Shown here one piece after another: positions 4,847 through 63,742 of a DNA stretch of 64,000 nucleotides (the first letter of the stretch is position 1; every line of letters starts with the position of its first letter). The notes under the pieces were generated by a model, which saw only the letters and a list, made by a program, of their open reading frames with translations, was not told the origin of the DNA and did no database searches. Where the stretch lies: IMG/VR virus record IMGVR_UViG_3300046462_000479; one strand, given 5' to 3'. The position numbers and the translations under genes are program-made. This stretch comes from a virus (taxonomy: Duplodnaviria > Heunggongvirae > Uroviricota > Caudoviricetes).

Positions 4847-5224
4847 ATGGAACTCAAAGTGGGCGACAAGATCACCCGGTACATGAGCGACGAACAGATA
4901 CCCATCCCAGCAGAAGTGTTTGCTGTCGACGACGACTACGTCTACCTCAGCAACGGGGTAATGACCCGCAAAGATCAATGCTGGAAGTTCGACAAAACCT
5001 GCGGGTATGAAGTCGACGAAGAGCTGGGGCTAGGACGGATGGAGGACGGCACCGTTCTGACCAGCAGCTACATCCCCGTCAAGGAATACGGGCCGCCAGA
5101 ACTACTCACTCGCGACCAGCTGATCGCGCTGAAACTCGCCGCCGTCGCCAAACGCGATGGCGTGTCGAAAGAAACGGCGCTCAGCCTCATTTTGGGCTTC
5201 ACAGATAGGCCGGAAGGAGTGTGA
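4847..5224 (+). CDS. hypothetical protein (125 aa)
   Basis: Internal ATG after AGGAGGGAAC; the upstream part of the track ORF is not protein-like. Confidence 0.5.
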   Translation: MELKVGDKITRYMSDEQIPIPAEVFAVDDDYVYLSNGVMTRKDQCWKFDKTCGYEVDEELGLGRMEDGTVLTSSYIPVKEYGPPELLTRDQLIALKLAAVAKRDGVSKETALSLILGFTDRPEGV

Positions 5225-5234
5225 CATGTCACGC
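5219..5234. repeat. palindrome variant GTGTGACATGTCACGC; its central ATG is the start of the next gene
   Basis: One mismatch. Confidence 0.85.
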
Positions 5235-5633
5235 CTAGCGCTTCCCTGCATCGCCTGCGGCCGCGAACTACACAACGTCGACGACATGGCTGGCAATCAG
5301 CCGTACAACGGCACCGCGTTCACGACGCATGGCCACTACGGGTCCACGATCTACGACCCGATGGACGGCCACTACCTCGAAATCAACGTATGTGACGCCT
5401 GCCTCGCACTCCATCCGGAACGGGCACTCGAAGGCCGCGACCGCAGACCCGTCATGGAAGACGGGGTCATCGTCCGATTCGAGGACGTGGAATGGCAGGA
5501 GATGCCGTGGATGCCAGATCCCGAGTCGATCGACTATGCGCTCAAGGTCACGCGCAAGGAGAGCGGCATCGACGACCTCAATCCTCTTCGCCAGATTCCA
5601 GTTCCGGAGTCTGATCCCCCAGCTGCAGCCTGA
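5226..5633 (+). CDS. Cys-rich (CIACG...CDAC) hypothetical protein, 135 aa
   Basis: ATG inside the palindrome; SD GGAAGGAG. Confidence 0.55.
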   Translation: MSRLALPCIACGRELHNVDDMAGNQPYNGTAFTTHGHYGSTIYDPMDGHYLEINVCDACLALHPERALEGRDRRPVMEDGVIVRFEDVEWQEMPWMPDPESIDYALKVTRKESGIDDLNPLRQIPVPESDPPAAA

Positions 5634-6045
5634 ACTTCACCGCGTCCGCGTTCTGGCCCGCGAACTCGATCCGGGTCGGGATGTGGTATTTCTCGGGATG
5701 GCGGCGTTCAAGCAGCCATTCCAGATGTTTGGTGTCGAACTCCTGGACCACGCCGACCAGCTGGCCGCGCTGAAAGATCGGCCGCTCGTTCGGTTCTAGC
5801 GCACGCCGGACGTTCTCGTATTCGAGAGCGTCGTCGATCATTTTTTGCGCGGCGTCGTACAAGGCCGAGAATCGTGGCGACGCTTTCCGTCGTGACTCGA
5901 CCGCGTTCGGGTGTACGCCAGCAGCCCTGGCTGCTTTGCCGATGATCGCGTACTCGTTCACGAGGGCCTCCAGGAAATCTTTCTCCCATGCTTCCGGAGG
6001 CCCTTCGTCCTCGAACAGATTTACTTCGTCTTCGGAGTGTGACAT
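5578..6045 (-). CDS. HTH protein resembling the terminase small subunit N-terminal HTH
   Basis: AIIGKAARAAGVHPNAVESRRK...ALYDAA motif; start ATG at the palindrome centre. Confidence 0.5.
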   Translation of the reverse strand: MSHSEDEVNLFEDEGPPEAWEKDFLEALVNEYAIIGKAARAAGVHPNAVESRRKASPRFSALYDAAQKMIDDALEYENVRRALEPNERPIFQRGQLVGVVQEFDTKHLEWLLERRHPEKYHIPTRIEFAGQNADAVKFRLQLGDQTPELESGEED

Positions 6046-6052
6046 GTCACAC
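6037..6052. repeat. 16-bp palindrome (supplies the ATG of the minus-strand gene)
   Basis: Perfect match. Confidence 0.9.
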
Positions 6053-6937
6053 TACTTCGGTGCGGTATCCGTTGCCGTCCCGGTAGAGGGCGTGCCGTTG
6101 TGTGCAGCGGCCGCAAACGATGTAGCCGAGCGGCCTTTCTGGTCCGTCAACGGGTACGACCTGGACCGGATATTCGCGGCCGAGCGTGTCGATCCTGGTT
6201 TCCGTGGAAGGCCTTTCCACGTCTCGTTCGATCTGGGCTCGGACAGCCTCGACTGTTTCGGGCGCAGGCTGGGCTGTTTCTTCTTGGCGCATCCTGTTCC
6301 GGATGGAGCCGACGGTCGGGTGCGACACTCCGCAAACCTCTGCGATGCGACGGTCCGAGCGCGACCAGTCGCGTTGTAGCTCTTTGCGTACGAGCGACTG
6401 TTTCTGCTCTTTGGTCAGTTGGCGTCGGTTCGCGTTCAGCGCGATCGACAGTTCGTATTCGCCTGCCTGGTCGAGGTCGGACACGAACACGACCGGGATC
6501 TCGGTCAAGCCCAACAGTTTGCTGGCCATCAGCCGGTGACGGCCGTCGATCAGCATGTGGCGGCCGATCACGATCGGCACCCTGACGCCTTCGTCCTCGA
6601 TGCTGTTGATCAGCGCCCGCTGTTCTTCTGCGCTTAGGTCAGGCAGCGGCCCCGATTGCAGCTCGATCTCGCTCCTCAGTTCCGCCAGGAGCGACGAGGC
6701 CGAGGATGGCGAGAGCCCTAGCTCGCTGGCGAGGGTAGTCAGGTTGTAGCCATCGCTCATCTCGTCCGCTAAGAGCAGTTTGATCGCCTGCGCCCTCGGG
6801 GACAACGCCTCCAAGTCCACCGTCCGGTAGTTCGTCGAAAACGTAGTCGGGGGTTCGGGAGCCGTTTCTTCCGAGAACTCGTCTGGGGCCGACGTCGACG
6901 GCTCGTTGGCTACATATCCATCGTCCGTACTGCTCAA
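6047..6937 (-). CDS. ParB-like nuclease-domain protein with C-terminal HTH (TTG start)
   Basis: PIVIGRHMLIDGRHRLMASKLLG ParB/Srx core; HTH VSHPTVGSIRNR. Confidence 0.7.
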   Translation of the reverse strand: MSSTDDGYVANEPSTSAPDEFSEETAPEPPTTFSTNYRTVDLEALSPRAQAIKLLLADEMSDGYNLTTLASELGLSPSSASSLLAELRSEIELQSGPLPDLSAEEQRALINSIEDEGVRVPIVIGRHMLIDGRHRLMASKLLGLTEIPVVFVSDLDQAGEYELSIALNANRRQLTKEQKQSLVRKELQRDWSRSDRRIAEVCGVSHPTVGSIRNRMRQEETAQPAPETVEAVRAQIERDVERPSTETRIDTLGREYPVQVVPVDGPERPLGYIVCGRCTQRHALYRDGNGYRTEVV

Positions 6938-7184
6938 AAGTGGCCATCCTTTCCGGGTTGTAGCGGGCCTCGCATCGGTGCAGGATGATGATTAATTCTT
7001 GGAGCGAGTCGTCGTAGAAGCTGGGGCGTAGGAACATGCCCCAGCCGTCGAAGGCGTCGTCGAGGTACTTGCGGCAGAACACTTCTGCGTCCTCGACTGG
7101 TCCTGGATGCCAGCGGGTCGGCCTGCGGTTGAGGTCGTAGGCTGACGCACCGATTTTCAGGGGCTCGGGTAGGAGACGTTTCAC
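6938..7184 (-). CDS. hypothetical protein (~80 aa; 3' end uncertain, its frame runs on into the ParB gene)
   Basis: N-terminal 80 aa of track ORF 6639..7184 are protein-like; the rest overlaps the ParB gene out of frame. Confidence 0.35.
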
Positions 7185-7222
7185 GCTCGTCCGCGAGTGT
7201 AGTACAGGCGACCGGACAGACC

Positions 7223-7252
7223 TTGATCTACCCCACCCCAGTCATGTATACT
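7223..7252 (+). promoter_or_regulatory. promoter TTGATC-N18-TATACT (TG-extended, C-rich spacer)
   Basis: Same family as 1097, 20082 and 21533. Confidence 0.5.
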
Positions 7253-7329
7253 AATGTAATGGAGGGGAGGTACGGGCTGTCGGTCAGCGGCCCGGAGAGC
7301 GGCTGCAACCCGCAACTCCCCTCCTCACA

Positions 7330-9040: not shown

Positions 9041-9056
9041 GTGTGACATGTCACAC
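9041..9056. repeat. 16-bp palindrome
   Basis: Perfect match; the Ku GTG start is 14 nt downstream. Confidence 0.9.
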
Positions 9057-9912
9057 AGGGAGGTTCGCTGTGAAGACGATAATCAACGCGACGGTGCAGT
9101 TCGGGATGGCTGCCATCCCGGTGGCCGTTGCGTCAGCTCTGAACACGACGAACGATCCGTCGTTCAAGCTGTTGCATGAGCCGTGCCATCAGCCGGTGTC
9201 GAGGTCTGGTGGGGGCGGCTCGAACGGTGGCGGCTACTACTGCCATCACTGTGACACGTCTGCGGACGTGACGGTGCACGGTTTCGAGTACGCAAAGGGC
9301 GAGTTCGTCTGGTTCACGGACGCGGAGATGGCGAACGTGAAGCCGGACCGGGAGCCGGTGATCGTGCTGAAGAAGTTCGTGAAGGCGACGTCGATCAAGC
9401 CGGTGATGGTCGACAAGCACTACTTCTTGAAGCCGTCCGAGATGGCAGCGCTGGCTGACCCCTACGGGCAGCTGTACTCGGCGCTGGCGAAGCTGAAGGT
9501 GGCTGGTGTGGGCACGCAGACGCTGTGGGGGAAGGAGCATCCCTGTGCGATCGTGGCCAACCAGGACTACGCCTCAGGTGGGGTGCTGATGATGCTGACG
9601 CTGATGCTGGCAGAGGATCTGGTTGATCCAGACTTTGCTGCTCCGGTGCCGTCGGCGGCCCTGCGTGCGTCTGCGCAGACGGCGGTGGCCGGTCTGATCG
9701 ACGAGTTGAGGCCGGAAGATGACTTGGTGTCGGAGTCGCGTGACCGGACGAAGGACGCGATCACGGCCAAGGTCGAGGGCCGCGAGATCGCTGTCGTGAG
9801 GCCGCAGGAGACGCTGGAACCGGTGATGGATATCGGGCAGGCGTTGCAGCAGGAGATCGCGGCCCGCAAGAAGGCGTCGAAGCCGAAGCCGAAAGCGAGG
9901 GCGAAGGCATGA
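9043..9912 (+). CDS. ku: Ku-like DNA end-binding protein (the likely real start is the GTG at ~9070)
   Basis: FGMAAIPVAV...SFKLLHEPC...YFLKPSE...MLTLMLAEDLVDPDF align with the bacterial Ku core. Confidence 0.85.
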   Translation: MTCHTGRFAVKTIINATVQFGMAAIPVAVASALNTTNDPSFKLLHEPCHQPVSRSGGGGSNGGGYYCHHCDTSADVTVHGFEYAKGEFVWFTDAEMANVKPDREPVIVLKKFVKATSIKPVMVDKHYFLKPSEMAALADPYGQLYSALAKLKVAGVGTQTLWGKEHPCAIVANQDYASGGVLMMLTLMLAEDLVDPDFAAPVPSAALRASAQTAVAGLIDELRPEDDLVSESRDRTKDAITAKVEGREIAVVRPQETLEPVMDIGQALQQEIAARKKASKPKPKARAKA

Positions 9913-17385: not shown

Positions 17386-17401
17386 GTGTGACATGTCACA
17401 C
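17386..17401. repeat. 16-bp palindrome
   Basis: Perfect match. Confidence 0.9.
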
Positions 17402-57026: not shown

Positions 57027-59231
57027 CTACCGGCCGACCATCCAATCCTGCGGCTCCTGCCGCATATATCCGGTTTCGGATTGGGGGATCTGCATGTCGC
57101 GGCGGATGCCGGTGCCGCCGATGGACAGGCCCGTGTATTTGCCGTCCAGGACGTCCTGCCACACGGCCGGGTCTTCGCAGTGCAACACCATCACCCAGGT
57201 GCCCTTCTTCACCATCTCTGTGCCGTCGTAGGTGAAATCGGTGGGGGCAATGAACGACTCGACCGGGACTAGGCTTGGCTTGTTCGTTTTGAAGAATCCG
57301 GGGCGTGCGTGCTGCAGCTTCGACACCGACGCTTTCCCCTTGGCCACGTTCTTCATGTACTTGTGGGCGGCCGACTCGACCTCCTGCGGGATCATCCAGT
57401 CGTCCTGGCTGTCCAGGGCGTTTGGTTCCAGTACGACGCCGTAGATCAGCTGCCGGTGCTTGTCCGCCTTCTGTACCTGGTATTTCAGGCGCCGGTTGGC
57501 GTACATGATCGAGATGTTCTTCAGGGGGACATTGACGTGAACGTCTGAGATGGTGGGGCCGGAAACGGCTGCCATCGCGCCAGCCTCGCCCTGCCCTTCC
57601 AGTCCGGCGGCAGCGTCGCCTACGTCGTTGGAGGGGGGAGCGTCTCCGGCCGGACCTTCGGCGAAGTCTTTGCCGAGCATATCTCCGCCGATGATGTCCA
57701 GCACCTCGTTCCACGAATGGGGCGGCATTTCGGTGTAGTGGCTGACCACGTTCGGGTTGGTCCACTGCACGTTCCGGTTGGCGTCCTGCATGAAGTCGTT
57801 GGCCTGCACTTTCAGGCATTCTCCTTTGCGGGCCCGATGCTTGGTCGGGTTGGTGCGGCCGATGTAGTGGCCGTCGCGGGTGATCATCCGGTAGCTGTAG
57901 CCGCCGTCGGGTGTGCGGCTCATCCCGTGCACACGCAGGTTCAGTGTGGCCGGACGTGCCTGCGCTTTCTTCACCTCGAACGCCTTCTTCGCTTTCAGCT
58001 TGCCGCCTTTGAAGTCGATCTCTAGGATGGTGCCGGGACCGATCTCGTCGGCCTGGATCGCTCTGGTGTCGACTTTGCTGCGGTAGCCGTGGCCACCCAG
58101 CCAGCCTTCGGCCAGCTCGATGTTGCGGCTGTGGGTGATCAGCGCGACCGTGTGGCCTTGGTCGACCATCTTCAACAGCTTCTCCAACGCTGGGATGAAC
58201 CGCTTCTGGTAGGCGTTGAAGGATTCGCCGCCGTCGACGGGCTTGTCGGGATGGTCGTCCATGAACGGCTTCAGTTTCGGGATCACGTCCGCGGACGAGT
58301 GGCCTGCGAACGAGCCGAGGTTCCAGGGCCGGTAGGCGTTGTCTGACTTGACCGGGGCCCCGCAGATACGGCTGGCGATCTTCGAGGTCTGCTCGGCCCG
58401 TGTCAGCGTCGAGCTGTAGATCGTCTCCACTCCCGCGTTCTTCAAGAACTTGCCGAGGTTGCGGGCCTGTACGCGGCCTTGCGCGTCCAGCGGGATGTCG
58501 CGCCAGCCTTGCACGATGTCGTGCGGCGCTCCCGGCTTGTTGTAGCGGGTCTTCGCGTGCGAGACCAGGAACAGTTTCCCTGGCGTCGTTTTCATGGTCG
58601 GCTCGATCGCTTCCCCGAACTCGCGCAGCTTGTCACGCAGCCGGGCGGGAGGGTCTTCGGAGTGGCGTTCCTCCTGCACGTACAACGGGTCATGCTTGTC
58701 GATCCGTCCTTCCCAGCGGTCACAGACGTAGCCTTGGTCGACCTGGACGTTGTCGAACATTTCGCAGCGTCCGGCCGTGAAGAAGTCGCAGTTGCCGCAA
58801 TCTTCGTCTGCGTCGTCTGAGGGACGGTAGTGCGCCCAGCCGGGGATGCCGCTCTTCTTCACGGACTCGGCCAGCTCCTGCTTCTCCCATTCCTTTACGT
58901 CGCGGAGCGTCATCACGCCGCCGTTCGCTTCCACTTTCTCCCGGATGTTGGCGTGTTCCGGCTCAGCCAGACCGTCCAGCCAGTAGGACAGCTCCTGGTC
59001 GACAGGGTCGTGGCCGTACTTGTCGTTGCATTCGGACCGCAGGTCGGGATGGGCGGCCCAGAAGCGGCGTAGCTCCTGTTTGGCGTCCTCTTCGATGGCG
59101 CTGACGTTGGCGCAGTCTTTGTCGACGGTGTGGGGAAGCTTGCCTTTGTTGTCGAAATGATGGCGCTTCACCCAGTCGTGTCCAAAGCGGGCGTTCAGGT
59201 ACTCGCGCTGTTGTTGGCTACGGGCAGGCAT
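57027..59231 (-). CDS. prohead protease (HK97/S78-like C-terminal domain) fused to a degenerate histidine-phosphatase (PGAM/SixA-like) domain and a Cys-rich N-terminus (734 aa)
   Basis: C-terminus DSQDDWMIPQEV...LQHA...GLSIGG (His and Ser); middle QGWRDIPLDAQGRVQARNLGKFL...TIYSSTLTRAEQT...ALITHS. Confidence 0.7.
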   Translation of the reverse strand: MPARSQQQREYLNARFGHDWVKRHHFDNKGKLPHTVDKDCANVSAIEEDAKQELRRFWAAHPDLRSECNDKYGHDPVDQELSYWLDGLAEPEHANIREKVEANGGVMTLRDVKEWEKQELAESVKKSGIPGWAHYRPSDDADEDCGNCDFFTAGRCEMFDNVQVDQGYVCDRWEGRIDKHDPLYVQEERHSEDPPARLRDKLREFGEAIEPTMKTTPGKLFLVSHAKTRYNKPGAPHDIVQGWRDIPLDAQGRVQARNLGKFLKNAGVETIYSSTLTRAEQTSKIASRICGAPVKSDNAYRPWNLGSFAGHSSADVIPKLKPFMDDHPDKPVDGGESFNAYQKRFIPALEKLLKMVDQGHTVALITHSRNIELAEGWLGGHGYRSKVDTRAIQADEIGPGTILEIDFKGGKLKAKKAFEVKKAQARPATLNLRVHGMSRTPDGGYSYRMITRDGHYIGRTNPTKHRARKGECLKVQANDFMQDANRNVQWTNPNVVSHYTEMPPHSWNEVLDIIGGDMLGKDFAEGPAGDAPPSNDVGDAAAGLEGQGEAGAMAAVSGPTISDVHVNVPLKNISIMYANRRLKYQVQKADKHRQLIYGVVLEPNALDSQDDWMIPQEVESAAHKYMKNVAKGKASVSKLQHARPGFFKTNKPSLVPVESFIAPTDFTYDGTEMVKKGTWVMVLHCEDPAVWQDVLDGKYTGLSIGGTGIRRDMQIPQSETGYMRQEPQDWMVGR

Positions 59232-60697: not shown

Positions 60698-61023
60698 GCG
60701 CTGTGAGTATCGCCCTCCGGGCGGATGCTGGTGATCACGCGGACCAGTCCCCCGTGTTTATCGACCAGATACATGCGTTTCAGGTCGGCCGTCCAGACGA
60801 ATCTCATCGTCCGGTCGCGTTCGTTGCCGTTGCGGCGGCCGCGAACACGGTTGCGGCTGGATACCGCCCAGGACGGCTGCCGGGTCGAGTAGCGGCCCGA
60901 GTCGAGCGCCTCGTTTACTTCCTGGGCAACAAGCAGACGCAGGTAGCTGCCGGACGCCATCTCTTCCGGGAACCGCTCCCGAAACTGGTCGACGGCATGG
61001 TGGGTTACCTCAACCGGCCTCAT
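60694..61023 (-). CDS. hypothetical protein (109 aa)
   Basis: ORF track. Confidence 0.45.
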   Translation of the reverse strand: MRPVEVTHHAVDQFRERFPEEMASGSYLRLLVAQEVNEALDSGRYSTRQPSWAVSSRNRVRGRRNGNERDRTMRFVWTADLKRMYLVDKHGGLVRVITSIRPEGDTHSA

Positions 61024-62014
61024 CGAGCACGCTTTTCGCCCTCGACTGTGCCGTGCGGGCCTCCCGCACGAACGCTTCCAGCTCTTCCGGGTCTGACGTT
61101 TCTAGCGCCTGTTTGGCCCGCTCGCTCACTGTCCGCAGTTCTGCTTTCGTCATCGTTTCCAGTGGCGGCATGATCGTGAAGCACTCAATGAGCGCCTGGT
61201 TGGTCTGGGCGATGATGTCCAGGTATTCGCCCGCACGGTCGCCGACCTCGACCAGACCGTCGAATCCGTCCACGACACCGGCGAGAACGTCGAGCAGGTC
61301 GCGCAGTTCTTCTTGCGGGTCGGGCGGAACAGGCAGACATGAGGTCAGAAACGATTCCGTCTGCATGAACTTGTGAATGTCGTCGGCGTACAGTGTTTCG
61401 CTTTGGCCTTTGTCGATCACCCAGACGGACGCTTTGGTGAAGTGGTGGTCGAAGTCGTACCGGTAGAGGTCGCCGTATTGGCGGGCGACACGGATCATCT
61501 CTCTGACGCTGTAGGTGTGGTGGATGAACTCGCCTACCTGTTCGATTGTCTGGCCTTCCCAGGAGGGACGGATGAACCAGCTGACCACAACGAATTCGCG
61601 TGCCGCCCGACACAGGTTGTGGAGCGCCCTTTCTCCGTCTTCGACGTGTTCGAGCAGATGGCGGACGTAGACGATGTCGGCTGTCTCTAGTTCGTCCATG
61701 TCGAACAGGTCGACGACGTCGAAGGTCAGGTCCGGGTACTGCTCTTTGCAGTAGTTGACGAACCGAGGCGTGAAGTCGTAGCCGGTGTAGCCGATCCTGA
61801 CCGCTTCTCCCGGTTCGAAGCCTTTGATTTCGATGCCGGTGCCGCATCCAACTTCGAGGAAGCTGGACGGGCGGGCGCGGCTGACGATCAGCCGGAGGAT
61901 GCGCCTGTCGGGCGCGTCGGGTCCCTGTCCTATCCCCCAGCGGCCAAGTTCTGTTTCATCGGGCTGGCTGAGGAACGTTTCTGCGTCGAGTTTCGACCAG
62001 GGCGTGTTAGGCAT
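61010..62014 (-). CDS. class I SAM-dependent methyltransferase
   Basis: FLEVGCGTGIE motif I; DIVYVRHLLEHV. Confidence 0.7.
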   Translation of the reverse strand: MPNTPWSKLDAETFLSQPDETELGRWGIGQGPDAPDRRILRLIVSRARPSSFLEVGCGTGIEIKGFEPGEAVRIGYTGYDFTPRFVNYCKEQYPDLTFDVVDLFDMDELETADIVYVRHLLEHVEDGERALHNLCRAAREFVVVSWFIRPSWEGQTIEQVGEFIHHTYSVREMIRVARQYGDLYRYDFDHHFTKASVWVIDKGQSETLYADDIHKFMQTESFLTSCLPVPPDPQEELRDLLDVLAGVVDGFDGLVEVGDRAGEYLDIIAQTNQALIECFTIMPPLETMTKAELRTVSERAKQALETSDPEELEAFVREARTAQSRAKSVLDEAG

Positions 62015-62783
62015 GGTGTCTCCGCATCTCTGCTACCAGCTGGCCGCGGTTGGATTCGGCACGGGCGAGCATCCCTTCCGGGTTAGTGGAGTAGTGGAAC
62101 AGGACCTCGTTGACGGCGGCGAAGCGGGTGCCGCGCCGCATCAGGTCGATCCACAGGTCCCAGTCTTCGTAGCCGCCGTGGACGCCAGGCCAGCCTGCCA
62201 TGGCGGGATGGTATCCGCCGCAGTCTCTGAGGATCTGGGTGCGGAACAGGCTGCAGTAGAAGTAGCGGTTGTAGCCCCAGAGGACCTCTTCGTCGACTTC
62301 GTTGTAGGGGCGGTCGTAGCCGGGCATGTAGGTGCCGTTGCGGGTGGGCCCATGTTCTTGTAGGCCGGTGAGGACAACGTCGGCGTCTTGCAACAGGGGC
62401 AGCGTCTTCTCGATGTAGGTCTCTTCGAGCCAGTCGTCTGCGTCTAGGGGCAGGAAGGCGAGGCTGCGGGTGTTCATCAGGCCGGTGTTGCGGGCCGAGG
62501 GGAGGCCGCGGTTGTTGGTGCGGACGATCTTGACGGGCGTGATCGTGCTGAGACAGTTGACCGGTTCGAGGCTGCCGTCGTCGACGAGGATCACTTCGAC
62601 CGGCATCACGGTCTGTCTGAGCGCCGAGTCTAGGGCCCGTTGCAGCTGGCCGAGTTCGACGTTGTAGCAGGGGATGCAGACTGTCACCCCTTCTTCTAGC
62701 CGATGCAGTTTGTCCAGCGCCTGGTCGCGTTCCACGATCGTCTGGTACTGGTCGGTGCTCATAAACGCCTGGGTGATGCTCAT
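62007..62783 (-). CDS. family-2 glycosyltransferase (258 aa from the internal ATG)
   Basis: VCIPCYNVELGQLQRALDSALRQT...VILVDDGS. Confidence 0.7.
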   Translation of the reverse strand: MSITQAFMSTDQYQTIVERDQALDKLHRLEEGVTVCIPCYNVELGQLQRALDSALRQTVMPVEVILVDDGSLEPVNCLSTITPVKIVRTNNRGLPSARNTGLMNTRSLAFLPLDADDWLEETYIEKTLPLLQDADVVLTGLQEHGPTRNGTYMPGYDRPYNEVDEEVLWGYNRYFYCSLFRTQILRDCGGYHPAMAGWPGVHGGYEDWDLWIDLMRRGTRFAAVNEVLFHYSTNPEGMLARAESNRGQLVAEMRRHHA

Positions 62784-63742
62784 GTCCAACCCAGAGAGGA
62801 GAAGTTGTTGTTGTAGATCATTTCCTTCCAGTCCGGCTCGTGTACCCAGTAGTGGGTGGCGTTGAGCGGGATTGCTTTGTGCAGCCATTGCACAGATTCC
62901 ATGTGTTTGTCCTCTCCGCCGAGGCCCATCTGGTAGCCCCAGCTGACGATGAACGAGTTGATGCACAGGTCGTTGTTTTCGTTGGTGGGTGCCGCCAGCA
63001 GGGTCTGGAACGCTTGTTCTCTGTCGTCTTGGAAGTTGATCCAGAAGTCAGCCATCCATGTTCTTCCCCAGCTGCCGATGCCGGGCTGTCTGACGATGTA
63101 GATGCTGTTTTCCTCGGTCGGGTTAAAGATGTTGGAGTACCAGTCCAGGTGCATGGCGTCGAATGGGGGGCCGCAGCGTATGGTGTTCATCTGCAGCCTG
63201 CGATGTTCTGGTCCGGCCGGGAAGACATGGAAGGTGGTGTCGATCGGCCAGTGGCCGTAGGGGATCGTTCCCAGCCATTCCATCGTGTTTTTGTACAGGA
63301 GCCGGGTTTGGGTGGCGAGCACCATGCTGCGTAGCGGGTAGCCGTAGGGGATCTTGTCGTTGACGCGGGTGTGGGGCCCGACAGCACAACCGGTTTTCTT
63401 GGCTACGGCCATGTAGGCGGCAAAGGCGCGGCTGCTGGCGCCTTCGAAGCAGATGTCGGCGTCTGTGACCGCATACCAGTTGTGCGAGTCTCGGTATTGG
63501 TCTTTGAGAGCGATGTTGTAGTTGTCGGTGAGGGCGGGCATGGAGTCGACTTTTCCCAGCTGGTACACCTTTTTCACTTCTGGGAGCTGTTCGACTTTGT
63601 CGAGTAGACGCAGACAGTCGGGATGGTCGGTTCCGTTGTCGACGATGACCAGCTGGTAGAGCATCTTCATGTGCCGGAACGAGTTGATTGTCCGGGCGAG
63701 CGTGTCCAGCCGGTTGTAGGTGCCGAGGAAGACGGTCAGCAT
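62780..63742 (-). CDS. family-2 glycosyltransferase (320 aa)
   Basis: VFLGTYNRLDTLARTINS...LVIVDNGT. Confidence 0.7.
   Translation of the reverse strand: MLTVFLGTYNRLDTLARTINSFRHMKMLYQLVIVDNGTDHPDCLRLLDKVEQLPEVKKVYQLGKVDSMPALTDNYNIALKDQYRDSHNWYAVTDADICFEGASSRAFAAYMAVAKKTGCAVGPHTRVNDKIPYGYPLRSMVLATQTRLLYKNTMEWLGTIPYGHWPIDTTFHVFPAGPEHRRLQMNTIRCGPPFDAMHLDWYSNIFNPTEENSIYIVRQPGIGSWGRTWMADFWINFQDDREQAFQTLLAAPTNENNDLCINSFIVSWGYQMGLGGEDKHMESVQWLHKAIPLNATHYWVHEPDWKEMIYNNNFSSLGWT

Follow-up and report, generated by a model that had tools for sequence, protein, structure and literature searches.

A predicted sigma region-2 gene overlaps an HTH-ParB gene in a three-gene island with a TerS homologue in an uncultivated tailed phage

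What is encoded by a short leftward island set among rightward phage genes, and why do its first two open reading frames (ORFs) run into each other in different frames? We addressed this question for the island at the left of a 64,000-nucleotide stretch of the tailed phage record IMGVR_UViG_3300046462_000479 (IMG/VR; Caudoviricetes), a stretch referred to throughout as the window. The initial annotation had described three leftward genes here, one of them for a ParB-like nuclease and another for a protein resembling small terminase subunits (TerS), and it had left the frame problem as a choice between a TTG start, a sequencing frameshift and a programmed shift. Three minus-strand ORFs were indeed found, with plus-strand ORFs on both sides in the ORF listing, and the island reads as an independent minus-strand transcription unit of three genes, laid out as follows.

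Gene 1: positions 7184-6639, minus strand, 181 amino acids, GTG start.
Gene 2: positions 6937-6047, minus strand, 296 amino acids, TTG start.
Gene 3: positions 6045-5578, minus strand, 155 amino acids, ATG start.
Overlap of genes 1 and 2: positions 6639-6937, minus strand, 299 nucleotides out of frame, with gene 2 in the +1 frame.

Our answer is that a gene for a protein similar to region 2 of sigma factors overlaps a gene for a helix-turn-helix (HTH) and ParB protein, with TerS encoded in the same unit. We consider it probable, with considerable room for doubt, that in this three-gene unit genes 1 and 2 specify a split sigma-like factor.

Gene 1 had previously been noticed as an upstream ORF of 80 residues whose frame continues into the ParB gene. 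The frame does run on past the TTG, but the ORF has 181 codons, not 80, and instead of a short ORF or frameshift debris it appears to be a real gene for a sigma-70 region-2-like protein of 181 residues that overlaps the ParB gene by 299 nucleotides. A profile of five family members, run against 1.84 billion representative proteins, matched 148 proteins at E<=1e-3, and Sigma70_r2 was present in 58 of the 103 family matches that were scanned (best E-value 2.5e-10). When a 103-sequence profile was compared with the PDB, all matches were sigma factors (CnrH, 1.4e-4; FliA, 3.4e-4; RpoE, 2.7e-3; SigH/E). Because of the Sigma70_r2 content of the family and these sigma-only structural matches, gene 1 is predicted to be a divergent sigma-70 region 2, similar to those of extracytoplasmic function (ECF) sigma factors, without a region 4. 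Two parts of the protein can be distinguished.

Gene 1 residues 1-119: predicted sigma-70 region-2 (ECF-like) domain, followed by a variable linker.
Gene 1 residues 140-163: conserved basic C-terminal motif, GRDERWLQPDYPRQRARALAILGL.

Across the family the tail motif takes the form GRDERW[LV]QP[DE]Y.R.RARA..ILG[LI]. In the 60-residue tail of gene 1 in its own frame (frame 0), Pfam gave no HTH match, and the tail stops before a recognition helix could be encoded.

Gene 2 had been assigned a ParB/Srx fold with an HTH behind it on the strength of the stretch GRHMLIDGRHRLMAS, which lies within the 296-residue ORF, and this ORF matches ParB_N and HTH models. Searches by Pfam, PHROG, PDB profiles and Foldseek agree on the assignment. 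The Pfam ParB_N match is sub-threshold (E = 3e-4) and HTH_23 is above its gathering score at residues 194-219, while PHROG ParB families match at 1e-11 to 1e-13. The PDB profile search returned the pNOB8 ParB N-domain, M. xanthus ParB, Noc, Caulobacter ParB and Spo0J at 7.5e-10 to 5e-6. In the AlphaFold2 model, the predicted local distance difference test score (pLDDT) of the ParB core is 77-87, and Foldseek with this model gave a probability of 1.00 for Spo0J, CTP-bound ParB, Noc and KorB (8qa8/8qa9); the alignments, which include CDP-bound ParB, cover 120-164 columns across the N-domain and the HTH (136-164 for Spo0J, ParB and Noc). The domains of gene 2 can be listed from the N terminus.

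Gene 2 residues 1-40: leader predicted to be disordered (AlphaFold2 pLDDT <40), rich in Ser, Thr, Pro and acidic residues.
Gene 2 residues 41-97 (positions 6647-6817, minus strand): first HTH.
Gene 2 residues ~100-175: ParB N-terminal domain with the DGRHR and NxxRR motifs.
Gene 2 residues ~176-222: second HTH, the predicted DNA-binding domain.
Gene 2 residues ~246-296: small beta-rich C-terminal domain with a CxxC...H pattern.

From sequence and structure prediction, gene 2 is a putative protein of the ParB, KorB or Noc type, in which an N-domain with a nucleotide pocket is joined to an HTH DNA-binding domain. Box II of the pocket reads GRHRLMA; G132 and R135 are invariant, while other residues stand in place of the Glu and the first Arg of GERR. 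The Box III residues N168, R171 and R172 are invariant in the gene 2 family, and a Box I QPR was not seen on reading gene 2 by eye. Nucleotide binding by the gene 2 protein is plausible.

The name nuclease, by contrast, was not borne out, since the core resembles the DNA-binding proteins ParB, Noc and KorB with their HTH in the Foldseek comparison. Where the word appears among the matches of gene 2, it is a database name only, as for 5k5a, the pNOB8 ParB N-domain. A role akin to partition had also been mentioned, and a ParB fold with an HTH is what the partition protein of a plasmid-prophage would show. No ParA-type gene, however, is called within 10 kb on either side of the island; Pfam finds no C-terminal ParB dimerisation domain in gene 2; the ParA-binding motif LG[RK]GL was not seen on reading its sequence; and the conserved neighbors are a sigma-like gene and terS. 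We regard a partition function as very unlikely.

What ties gene 2 to gene 1 is the extra HTH at the N terminus of gene 2, which the initial annotation had overlooked together with its link to sigma region 4. Two relatives of gene 1, P0057 and P0066, are single chains in which an HTH comes after region 2, and both pass the Sigma70_r2 gathering score. The HTH alignment A5 was matched by hhalign to P0057 with 91% probability and to P0066 with 85%, and the HTH stretch of P0066 in turn matches the region-4 end of Pfam Sigma70_ECF (E = 0.003). We interpret the first HTH of gene 2 as homologous to the HTH that occupies the sigma-4 position in single-chain gene 1 relatives, and the single-chain proteins as connecting genes 1 and 2 in the manner of a Rosetta stone. 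A further IMG/VR locus, L007, has a ParB protein of 36% identity, and there a 232-residue sigma-2-like ORF (E = 8e-23 to the family model) ends 26 nucleotides into an HTH-ParB ORF that has its own GTG start. In view of this layout, two separate polypeptides appear to be the normal state of the gene 1/gene 2 pair. When the other IMG/VR ParB loci (L008-L029) were searched, a sigma-2-like neighbor was found in L007 only. At the far end of the proteins, the distant gene 1 homologues P0066 (344 residues) and P0060 (274 residues) have a C-terminal region with two CxxC pairs, and gene 2 ends in its CxxC...H domain; a zinc-ribbon-like module shared by the single-chain relatives and gene 2 is possible.

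We hypothesized that genes 1 and 2 together make up a sigma-like transcription factor split into two halves. The module that binds core polymerase and the -10 element would come from gene 1, and gene 2 would contribute a further DNA-binding module attached to a ParB nucleotide switch. Through the overlap, synthesis of the two proteins would be coupled, and the pair would switch on late or packaging transcription of the phage, with TerS produced from the same transcription unit.

Several observations weigh against this hypothesis. The Sigma70_r2 assignment of gene 1 is transitive, as the direct Pfam comparison gives E = 0.036, below the gathering score. A five-sequence gene 1 profile reached sigma factors in the PDB at E of about 0.7, which fell short of significance until the 103-sequence profile was used, and the AlphaFold2 model of gene 1, made from five sequences, is unreliable at a pLDDT of 46. 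For the first HTH, Pfam on gene 2 residues 45-90 finds generic HTH families and no Sigma70_r4, and the PDB likewise yields generic HTH matches, with sigma-4 only at E = 0.93. The ParB pocket is off the CTPase consensus, with GRHR in place of GERR and no visible QPR, which makes the nucleotide switch less certain, and no promoter motif was identified for the putative sigma factor.

If the two halves belonged to one protein, the single-base offset between them could be the mark of a sequencing or assembly error, or of a decaying pseudogene. The 1,683-nucleotide island (5578-7260), however, has exactly the same sequence in each of three independent metagenome assemblies (L046-L048). In addition, we gathered relatives by protein searches and locus retrieval and assembled a set of 14 distinct ones, made up of the window together with L045, L001, L002, L040, L041, L005, L030, L035, L038, L003, L043, L042 and L044, to which all counts of relatives refer. 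Gene 1 amino acid identity across this set is 35%-86%. By tblastn, the gene 1 homologue lies in a frame f and the ParB homologue in f+1 in 14/14 relatives, so the comparison with related phages that had been proposed as a check turned up the two-frame layout everywhere and no clean single ORF. Both frames, moreover, show purifying selection, as detailed below. With the same offset present in every diverged relative, an error or a pseudogene is hardly credible, and we take the frame arrangement to be a conserved gene overlap.

That the frames are open says little by itself: between 7150 and 6047 the +1 frame contains a single stop, and a stop in frame 0 requires a rare T at the third position of a ParB codon in this GC-rich sequence (the phage has a G+C content of ~61%). 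Third-position variation is more telling. Frame 0 is selected through the motif DYVFD[DE]L (GAC/GAT/GAG, GTC/GTT, TTC/TTT, CTA/CTT/CTC/CTG), and selection on the +1 frame sets in at [VMLI]DL..LSPR and continues from there. The gap between the two blocks is 7, 16 or 19 nucleotides in the seven relatives measured, always 1 modulo 3, and in the window the starts of the two genes are separated by 7184-6937 = 247 = 3x82+1.

Selection on both frames at once can be followed by synonymous codon identity, which is the share of sequence pairs with the same amino acid that also have the same codon. Synonymous sites are nearly saturated in the set of relatives, with a baseline identity of ~0.4, and the segments compare as follows.

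Gene 1 codons 1-71: 0.39, the baseline.
Gene 1 codons 72-87, around the internal start of gene 2: 0.60 (p = 0.005).
Gene 1 codons 88-111: 0.45 (p = 0.14).
Gene 1 codons 112-119: 0.63 (p = 0.003).
Gene 2 codons 57-80: 0.76 (p = 4e-7, Mann-Whitney).
Rest of gene 2: 0.44, the baseline.
Dual-coding core: positions 6698-6769, minus strand, where gene 2 codons 57-80 (ADEMSDGYNLTTLASELGLSPSSA, in the first HTH) lie over the C-terminal motif of gene 1.

At 0.45, gene 1 codons 88-111 show little extra constraint from the gene 2 leader; this leader of 40 residues is itself poorly constrained and lies over the best-conserved part of gene 1. Judging from the models, the overlap sets the ordered part of each protein against a less constrained part of the other. 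Within the dual-coding core, individual codons illustrate the constraint. Asp62 of gene 2 is encoded by the non-preferred GAT in 10/12 cases, which makes a Trp in gene 1, and Leu73 is CTA or CTT in 13/14 relatives and never CTG; the codons used give Arg or Trp in gene 1, whereas CTG would give Gly. The constraint stops where most frame-0 ORFs end. We considered RNA structure as its cause and rejected it, as the RNAalifold consensus reaches only -4.9 kcal/mol over 123 nucleotides with no useful covariation. Because the constraint maps onto the gene 1 tail motif and the RNA fold is weak, true dual coding, with both frames of the overlap apparently under selection, is the best reading of these data.

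The start of gene 2 is also written into the codons of gene 1. The TTG is preceded by a sequence of the Shine-Dalgarno (SD) type.

Positions 6947-6953, minus strand: internal SD-like GAAAGGA, within gene 1 codons E78-R79.

From the end of the AAGGA core to the TTG of gene 2 there are 9 nucleotides, a spacing suited to initiation, and the layout of GAAAGGA, then 8 nucleotides, then TTG is set by the codon choice of gene 1. The Arg79 codon is AGG in 10/14 relatives and AGA in 3/14, compared with 9% and 4% elsewhere, and the TTG itself consists of the Phe83 codon TTT plus a G, with TTT used in 13/14 relatives and 27% elsewhere; the binomial tests on these codons count 14 related sequences as independent, which lessens their weight in favor of an internal start. 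Exactly one SD-backed start is present in 13/14 relatives, at 40-53 codons ahead of the DL motif and with an SD spacing of 5-10 nucleotides. The exception, L030, is without an SD-backed start and likewise speaks against this assignment. In L001, L002 and L040 the start lies eight codons further upstream, where a TTG or ATG follows its own GGAGG, GGAG or AAGG. A start that has been relocated along with its SD sequence suggests that what selection maintains is a start in this frame, whatever its exact sequence.

The public annotation of the Joint Genome Institute (JGI) begins the ParB gene at TTG L42, which yields 255 residues under the name "AraC-like DNA-binding protein", and gene 1 is absent from it (window 6811-6937; L046 9450-10001). 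We rejected a start at L42 or at GTG V40: neither has an SD sequence, six relatives have no start codon there (none within 25 codons of the DL motif), and D41 of gene 2 is nearly invariant. It follows from the near invariance of D41 that the 255-residue call is too short. We conclude that gene 2 probably starts at TTG 6937, and the comparative data favor this TTG start over both a sequencing frameshift and a programmed shift.

The programmed shift nevertheless deserves attention. A +1 frameshift after DYVFDEL would yield a single protein made of sigma region 2, the first HTH and ParB, as the sole product or as an additional one, and it would account for the short distance of 7-19 nucleotides between the end of frame-0 conservation and the beginning of +1 conservation in the seven relatives measured. 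ParB is in the +1 frame in 14/14 relatives (tblastn), none of which has a frame-0 stop in the linker, and the single-chain relatives do hold region 2 and a homologous HTH in one frame. The junction linker, however, varies in both length and sequence, and it contains no conserved frameshift signal: no slippery or hungry-codon motif, heptamer, rare codon, stop codon or upstream stimulator is kept. A shift at the conserved TTTG was considered and discarded, as frame-0 conservation runs 36 codons further. The conserved SD sequence and start in the +1 frame, displaced by eight codons in one subgroup together with its SD, speak against a fusion, as does selection on the frame-0 tail past the linker, and the genes are plainly separate in L007. 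We consider the programmed frameshift, for which no signal is seen, improbable, although a fusion may arise as a minor product. Two separate proteins from overlapping genes are what we assume below.

Gene 3 is a putative small-terminase homologue of the Sf6 gp1 type. It matches the terminase small subunit family PHROG 4044 at E = 1.8e-17, and tblastn found 68 phage records down to 3e-9, in which many of the matched genes are annotated terS. Its identity is 28-36% to terS-annotated genes that lie two small ORFs upstream of terL in PaMx74 and RcRudolph, and the PaMx74 gene is annotated by similarity to Sf6 gp1 (PDB 3HEF). The match to Pfam Sf6_terminase is sub-threshold (E = 0.096-0.011), and the gene 3 alignment found no match among PDB sequences. 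The profile searches proposed earlier recovered both similarities in the island, to ParB and to TerS, with PHROG families. At its 3' end (5578, minus strand), gene 3 converges with a plus-strand gene of 135 residues at 5226-5633, and the tails overlap by 56 nucleotides (5578-5633); the JGI annotation of the same contig calls both genes.

The initial annotation had also remarked that TerS lies far from the presumed large terminase, and the map bears this out. By walking out of the window through identical proteins, we reached TerL (PHROG 2, E = 4e-32) at L049 2722-4194, equivalent to window positions 69549-71021 and outside the window. L046 and L049 overlap by 278 nucleotides with 0 mismatches, which closes a circle of 77,421 bp. 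On this circle gene 3 is ~12 kb from TerL on the same strand, with early genes on the opposite strand between them. TerL heads the late operon and has divergent genes upstream. No TerS candidate adjoins TerL, and gene 3 is the sole one found. The genes for the portal, the protease and the major head protein are on the minus strand at 54-61 kb, and ~9 kb of genes separate TerL from the portal; where a family match was obtained, the gene is for a methyltransferase or a glycosyltransferase, as at window positions 61010-63742. A 734-residue protein at 57027-59231 (minus strand) joins a histidine-phosphatase domain (His_Phos_1, E = 7e-28) to a prohead serine protease of the XkdF type at its C terminus (E = 6e-25); for a head-maturation protease such a fusion is unusual.

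The phage also carries a Ku homologue (PF02735) in its early region (window ~9043-9912, plus strand; L046 6903-7745), as do L001 and L002. Ku is reported from some actinobacteriophages that circularise by end joining, and some cos phages with short overhangs encode it.

These terminase data bear on a different reading of the island, as a packaging-initiation cassette. The ParB-like protein would then act with TerS at pac or cos as a nuclease or DNA-loading factor, comparable to the HNH proteins of cos phages, and gene 1 would be only a late activator like RinA or ArpU. Regulator, ParB and terS follow one another in a conserved order, as a TerS homologue comes after ParB in 12/14 relatives and the contig of one of the other two ends too early. 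The isolation of gene 3 as the only TerS candidate, with none beside TerL, and the presence of Ku in the phage would fit as well, and late activators are known to sit just upstream of terS (PMC3753634). Yet the ParB core aligns with the DNA-binding proteins ParB, Noc and KorB, including their HTH, and with no characterised nuclease. As a homologue of the HTH in the sigma-4 position, the first HTH links gene 2 to gene 1 and not to TerS, and L007 keeps the gene 1/gene 2 pair without a TerS homologue. We judge a packaging cassette unlikely, though it is to be taken seriously, and continue to favor the split sigma-like factor.

Palindromes are present in and beside the island. A perfect 16-bp palindrome, GTGTGACATGTCACAC, occurs at 5219-5234 and 6037-6052, so both copies described before are present. 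The second copy spans the TGA stop of gene 2 and has the gene 3 ATG at its center, so that the TerS-like protein, recognized by its PHROG 4044 match, does begin at the ATG of the palindrome as had been stated. In the window there are 26 copies at up to 2 mismatches, with 0.04 expected. Examples are at 419, 1385, 1825, 3286, 4296, 8039, 9041 and 14296, with further sites at 17386, 20587, 21846, 27430, 38591 and 59240, and most copies are at gene junctions of the early region; another copy, beyond the window, is at L049 2567. About 14 of them have an ORF of at least 50 residues from the central ATG on one strand, with products that begin MSH..., and the preceding gene often ends in GTG TGA. Others are intergenic, such as a copy ~145 nucleotides ahead of TerL and another between the genes for the portal and the protease.

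Two proteins are candidate binders of the palindromes: the ParB-like protein and an XRE repressor, the gene for which itself begins at the 4296 copy. Among relatives the third base of the half-site shifts, with GTGAC..GTCAC in L001, GTTAC..GTAAC in L040 and L041, both forms in L002, and GTAAC..GTTAC in L038. The recognition helices of the XRE protein (SHLE, SFIE, SRIE) and of the second HTH of gene 2 (SHPTV, SAPTV, TTPTV) vary in parallel with each other, so co-variation does not identify the binder.

It could be argued from these sites that gene 2 is a KorB-like global regulator that acts on the scattered palindromes independently of gene 1. The 26 copies have the size of ParB sites and lie at gene junctions, a copy lies ~145 nucleotides upstream of TerL, the half-site changes among relatives (GTGAC, GTTAC, GTAAC), the recognition helix of the second HTH varies too, and KorB itself provides a precedent (PMC11790492). 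The XRE-type repressor, with its gene starting at a palindrome, co-varies too and is the simpler candidate, however, and the correlation with the second HTH is not clean, as Ala occurs with both GTTAC and GTAAC. No such palindromes were seen in the more distant relatives that bear the island. We find a KorB-like role without gene 1 rather unlikely.

The palindromes enter into the split-factor hypothesis as well, in a form suggested by T4, in which a DNA-tracking clamp is coupled to a sigma factor that has only region 2. One could imagine that the ParB subunit is loaded onto the DNA at defined sites, perhaps the 16-bp palindromes, and that it then slides until it brings the region-2 subunit and RNA polymerase to late promoters or activates them there; in this picture the conserved C-terminal motif of gene 1 would act as a docking peptide, and co-expression would be enforced by the 299-nucleotide overlap. 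Such a ParB-based analogue of the clamp-coupled late transcription of T4 is a doubtful elaboration, in which we place little confidence.

Expression of the island can be considered from the sequence upstream of gene 1.

Positions 7245-7252, minus strand: the motif AGTATACA, AGTATAC(A), ~60 nucleotides upstream of gene 1, a likely -10 element of the TAnAGT type.

The motif AGTATACA is kept with small changes in 10/11 aligned upstream regions, and its retention suggests a host-type promoter belonging to the island itself. On the plus strand, these bases make up the TATACT hexamer of a promoter-like site at 7223-7252. The palindromic GTATAC inside the motif can serve as a -10 hexamer on either strand, TAnAGT leftward and TATACT rightward, which suggests a divergent promoter region shared by both strands. 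A divergent promoter at 7223 had been called at first sight; a sigma-70-type match is present there on the plus strand, but such sites are no commoner in this region than in shuffled sequence.

Gene 1 has largely escaped annotation. Island DNA had no blastn match in 50,697 phage records, and tblastn with gene 1 found nothing in the same records. The gene 1 region is uncalled in the contig of the window and in the contigs of all 10 relatives whose gene tables were examined, and a search of a collection of 5.8 billion proteins returned just four gene 1-like proteins. Gene callers choose the ParB ORF, which is longer, and do not permit extensive overlaps on one strand. Gene 1 would thus represent a hidden family of sigma-70-derived genes in uncultivated high-GC phages, uncalled in most of the contigs examined. 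[quoted passage not shown] For annotation, the ParB start should be moved from L42 to TTG 6937, gene 1 should be added, and the "AraC-like" label and the reading as a nuclease should be dropped. To the theme of ParB-Sigma70 combinations the locus would contribute the region-2 partner and a genomic setting, in which terS lies downstream and a putative promoter belongs to the unit, and it makes the hypothesis of a ParB-tethered split sigma factor testable.

Taken together, the arrangement draws on known kinds of system, a combination of ParB with sigma and an overlapping gene pair, and does not call for a new category. The closest comparison is the gut-phage protein uvig_297896_22, in which a ParB-CTPase fold is combined with a Sigma70 domain and whose pocket, GEHRVRA, bound ATP (PNAS 2025, PMC12704722); in the same study, ATP or CTP was bound by phage fusion proteins that have comparable GxHR pockets (PMC12704722). 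Likened by domains and motif, gene 2 resembles it in being a phage protein with a ParB pocket domain and a presumed sigma-derived DNA-binding domain, and in its GxHRxxA pocket (GEHRVRA versus GRHRLMA). It differs in that the sigma-derived HTH of gene 2 has no direct Pfam match and the region-2 half is a separate gene overlapping it by 299 nucleotides. KorB, VirB and BisD are ParB-family transcription regulators on mobile elements (PMC11790492, PMC10770331, PMC12409273) that share the core of ParB N-domain and HTH with gene 2 and serve regulation rather than segregation. Unlike them, gene 2 has an extra N-terminal HTH, no known C-terminal dimerisation domain and a pocket that departs from GERR.

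In many Gram-positive phages, the Ltr late activators (RinA, ArpU, LtrA-C) are small regulators encoded directly upstream of terS, and one of their families is similar to sigma region 4 (PMC3753634). The island recalls this order of late activator and then terS. Genes 1 and 2, however, have no Pfam match to those families, gene 1 is similar to region 2 and not to region 4, and terS here is ~12 kb from terL with opposite-strand genes in between. Gene 3 is ~30% identical over ~70% of its length to the Sf6 gp1-type TerS of PaMx74 (gp01), in a family with an N-terminal HTH followed by an oligomerisation region; its homologues in PaMx74 and RcRudolph are upstream of terL, whereas gene 3 lies away from it.

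Sigma function is spread over two polypeptides in T4, where the region-2-like gp55 works with gp33 and the gp45 clamp, and in the SigO-RsoA pair of B. subtilis. Genes 1 and 2 would share this division with gp55/gp33 and SigO-RsoA, although they have no sequence relationship to either system and the second half is here fused to a ParB module. Long same-strand overlaps are likewise familiar from phages, as in A/B/K and D/E of phiX174 and Rz/Rz1 of lambda. As in those cases, one stretch of DNA is read in two frames to give two proteins; in contrast to them, both partners in this island are predicted to be regulatory and appear to be linked halves of one ancestral architecture.

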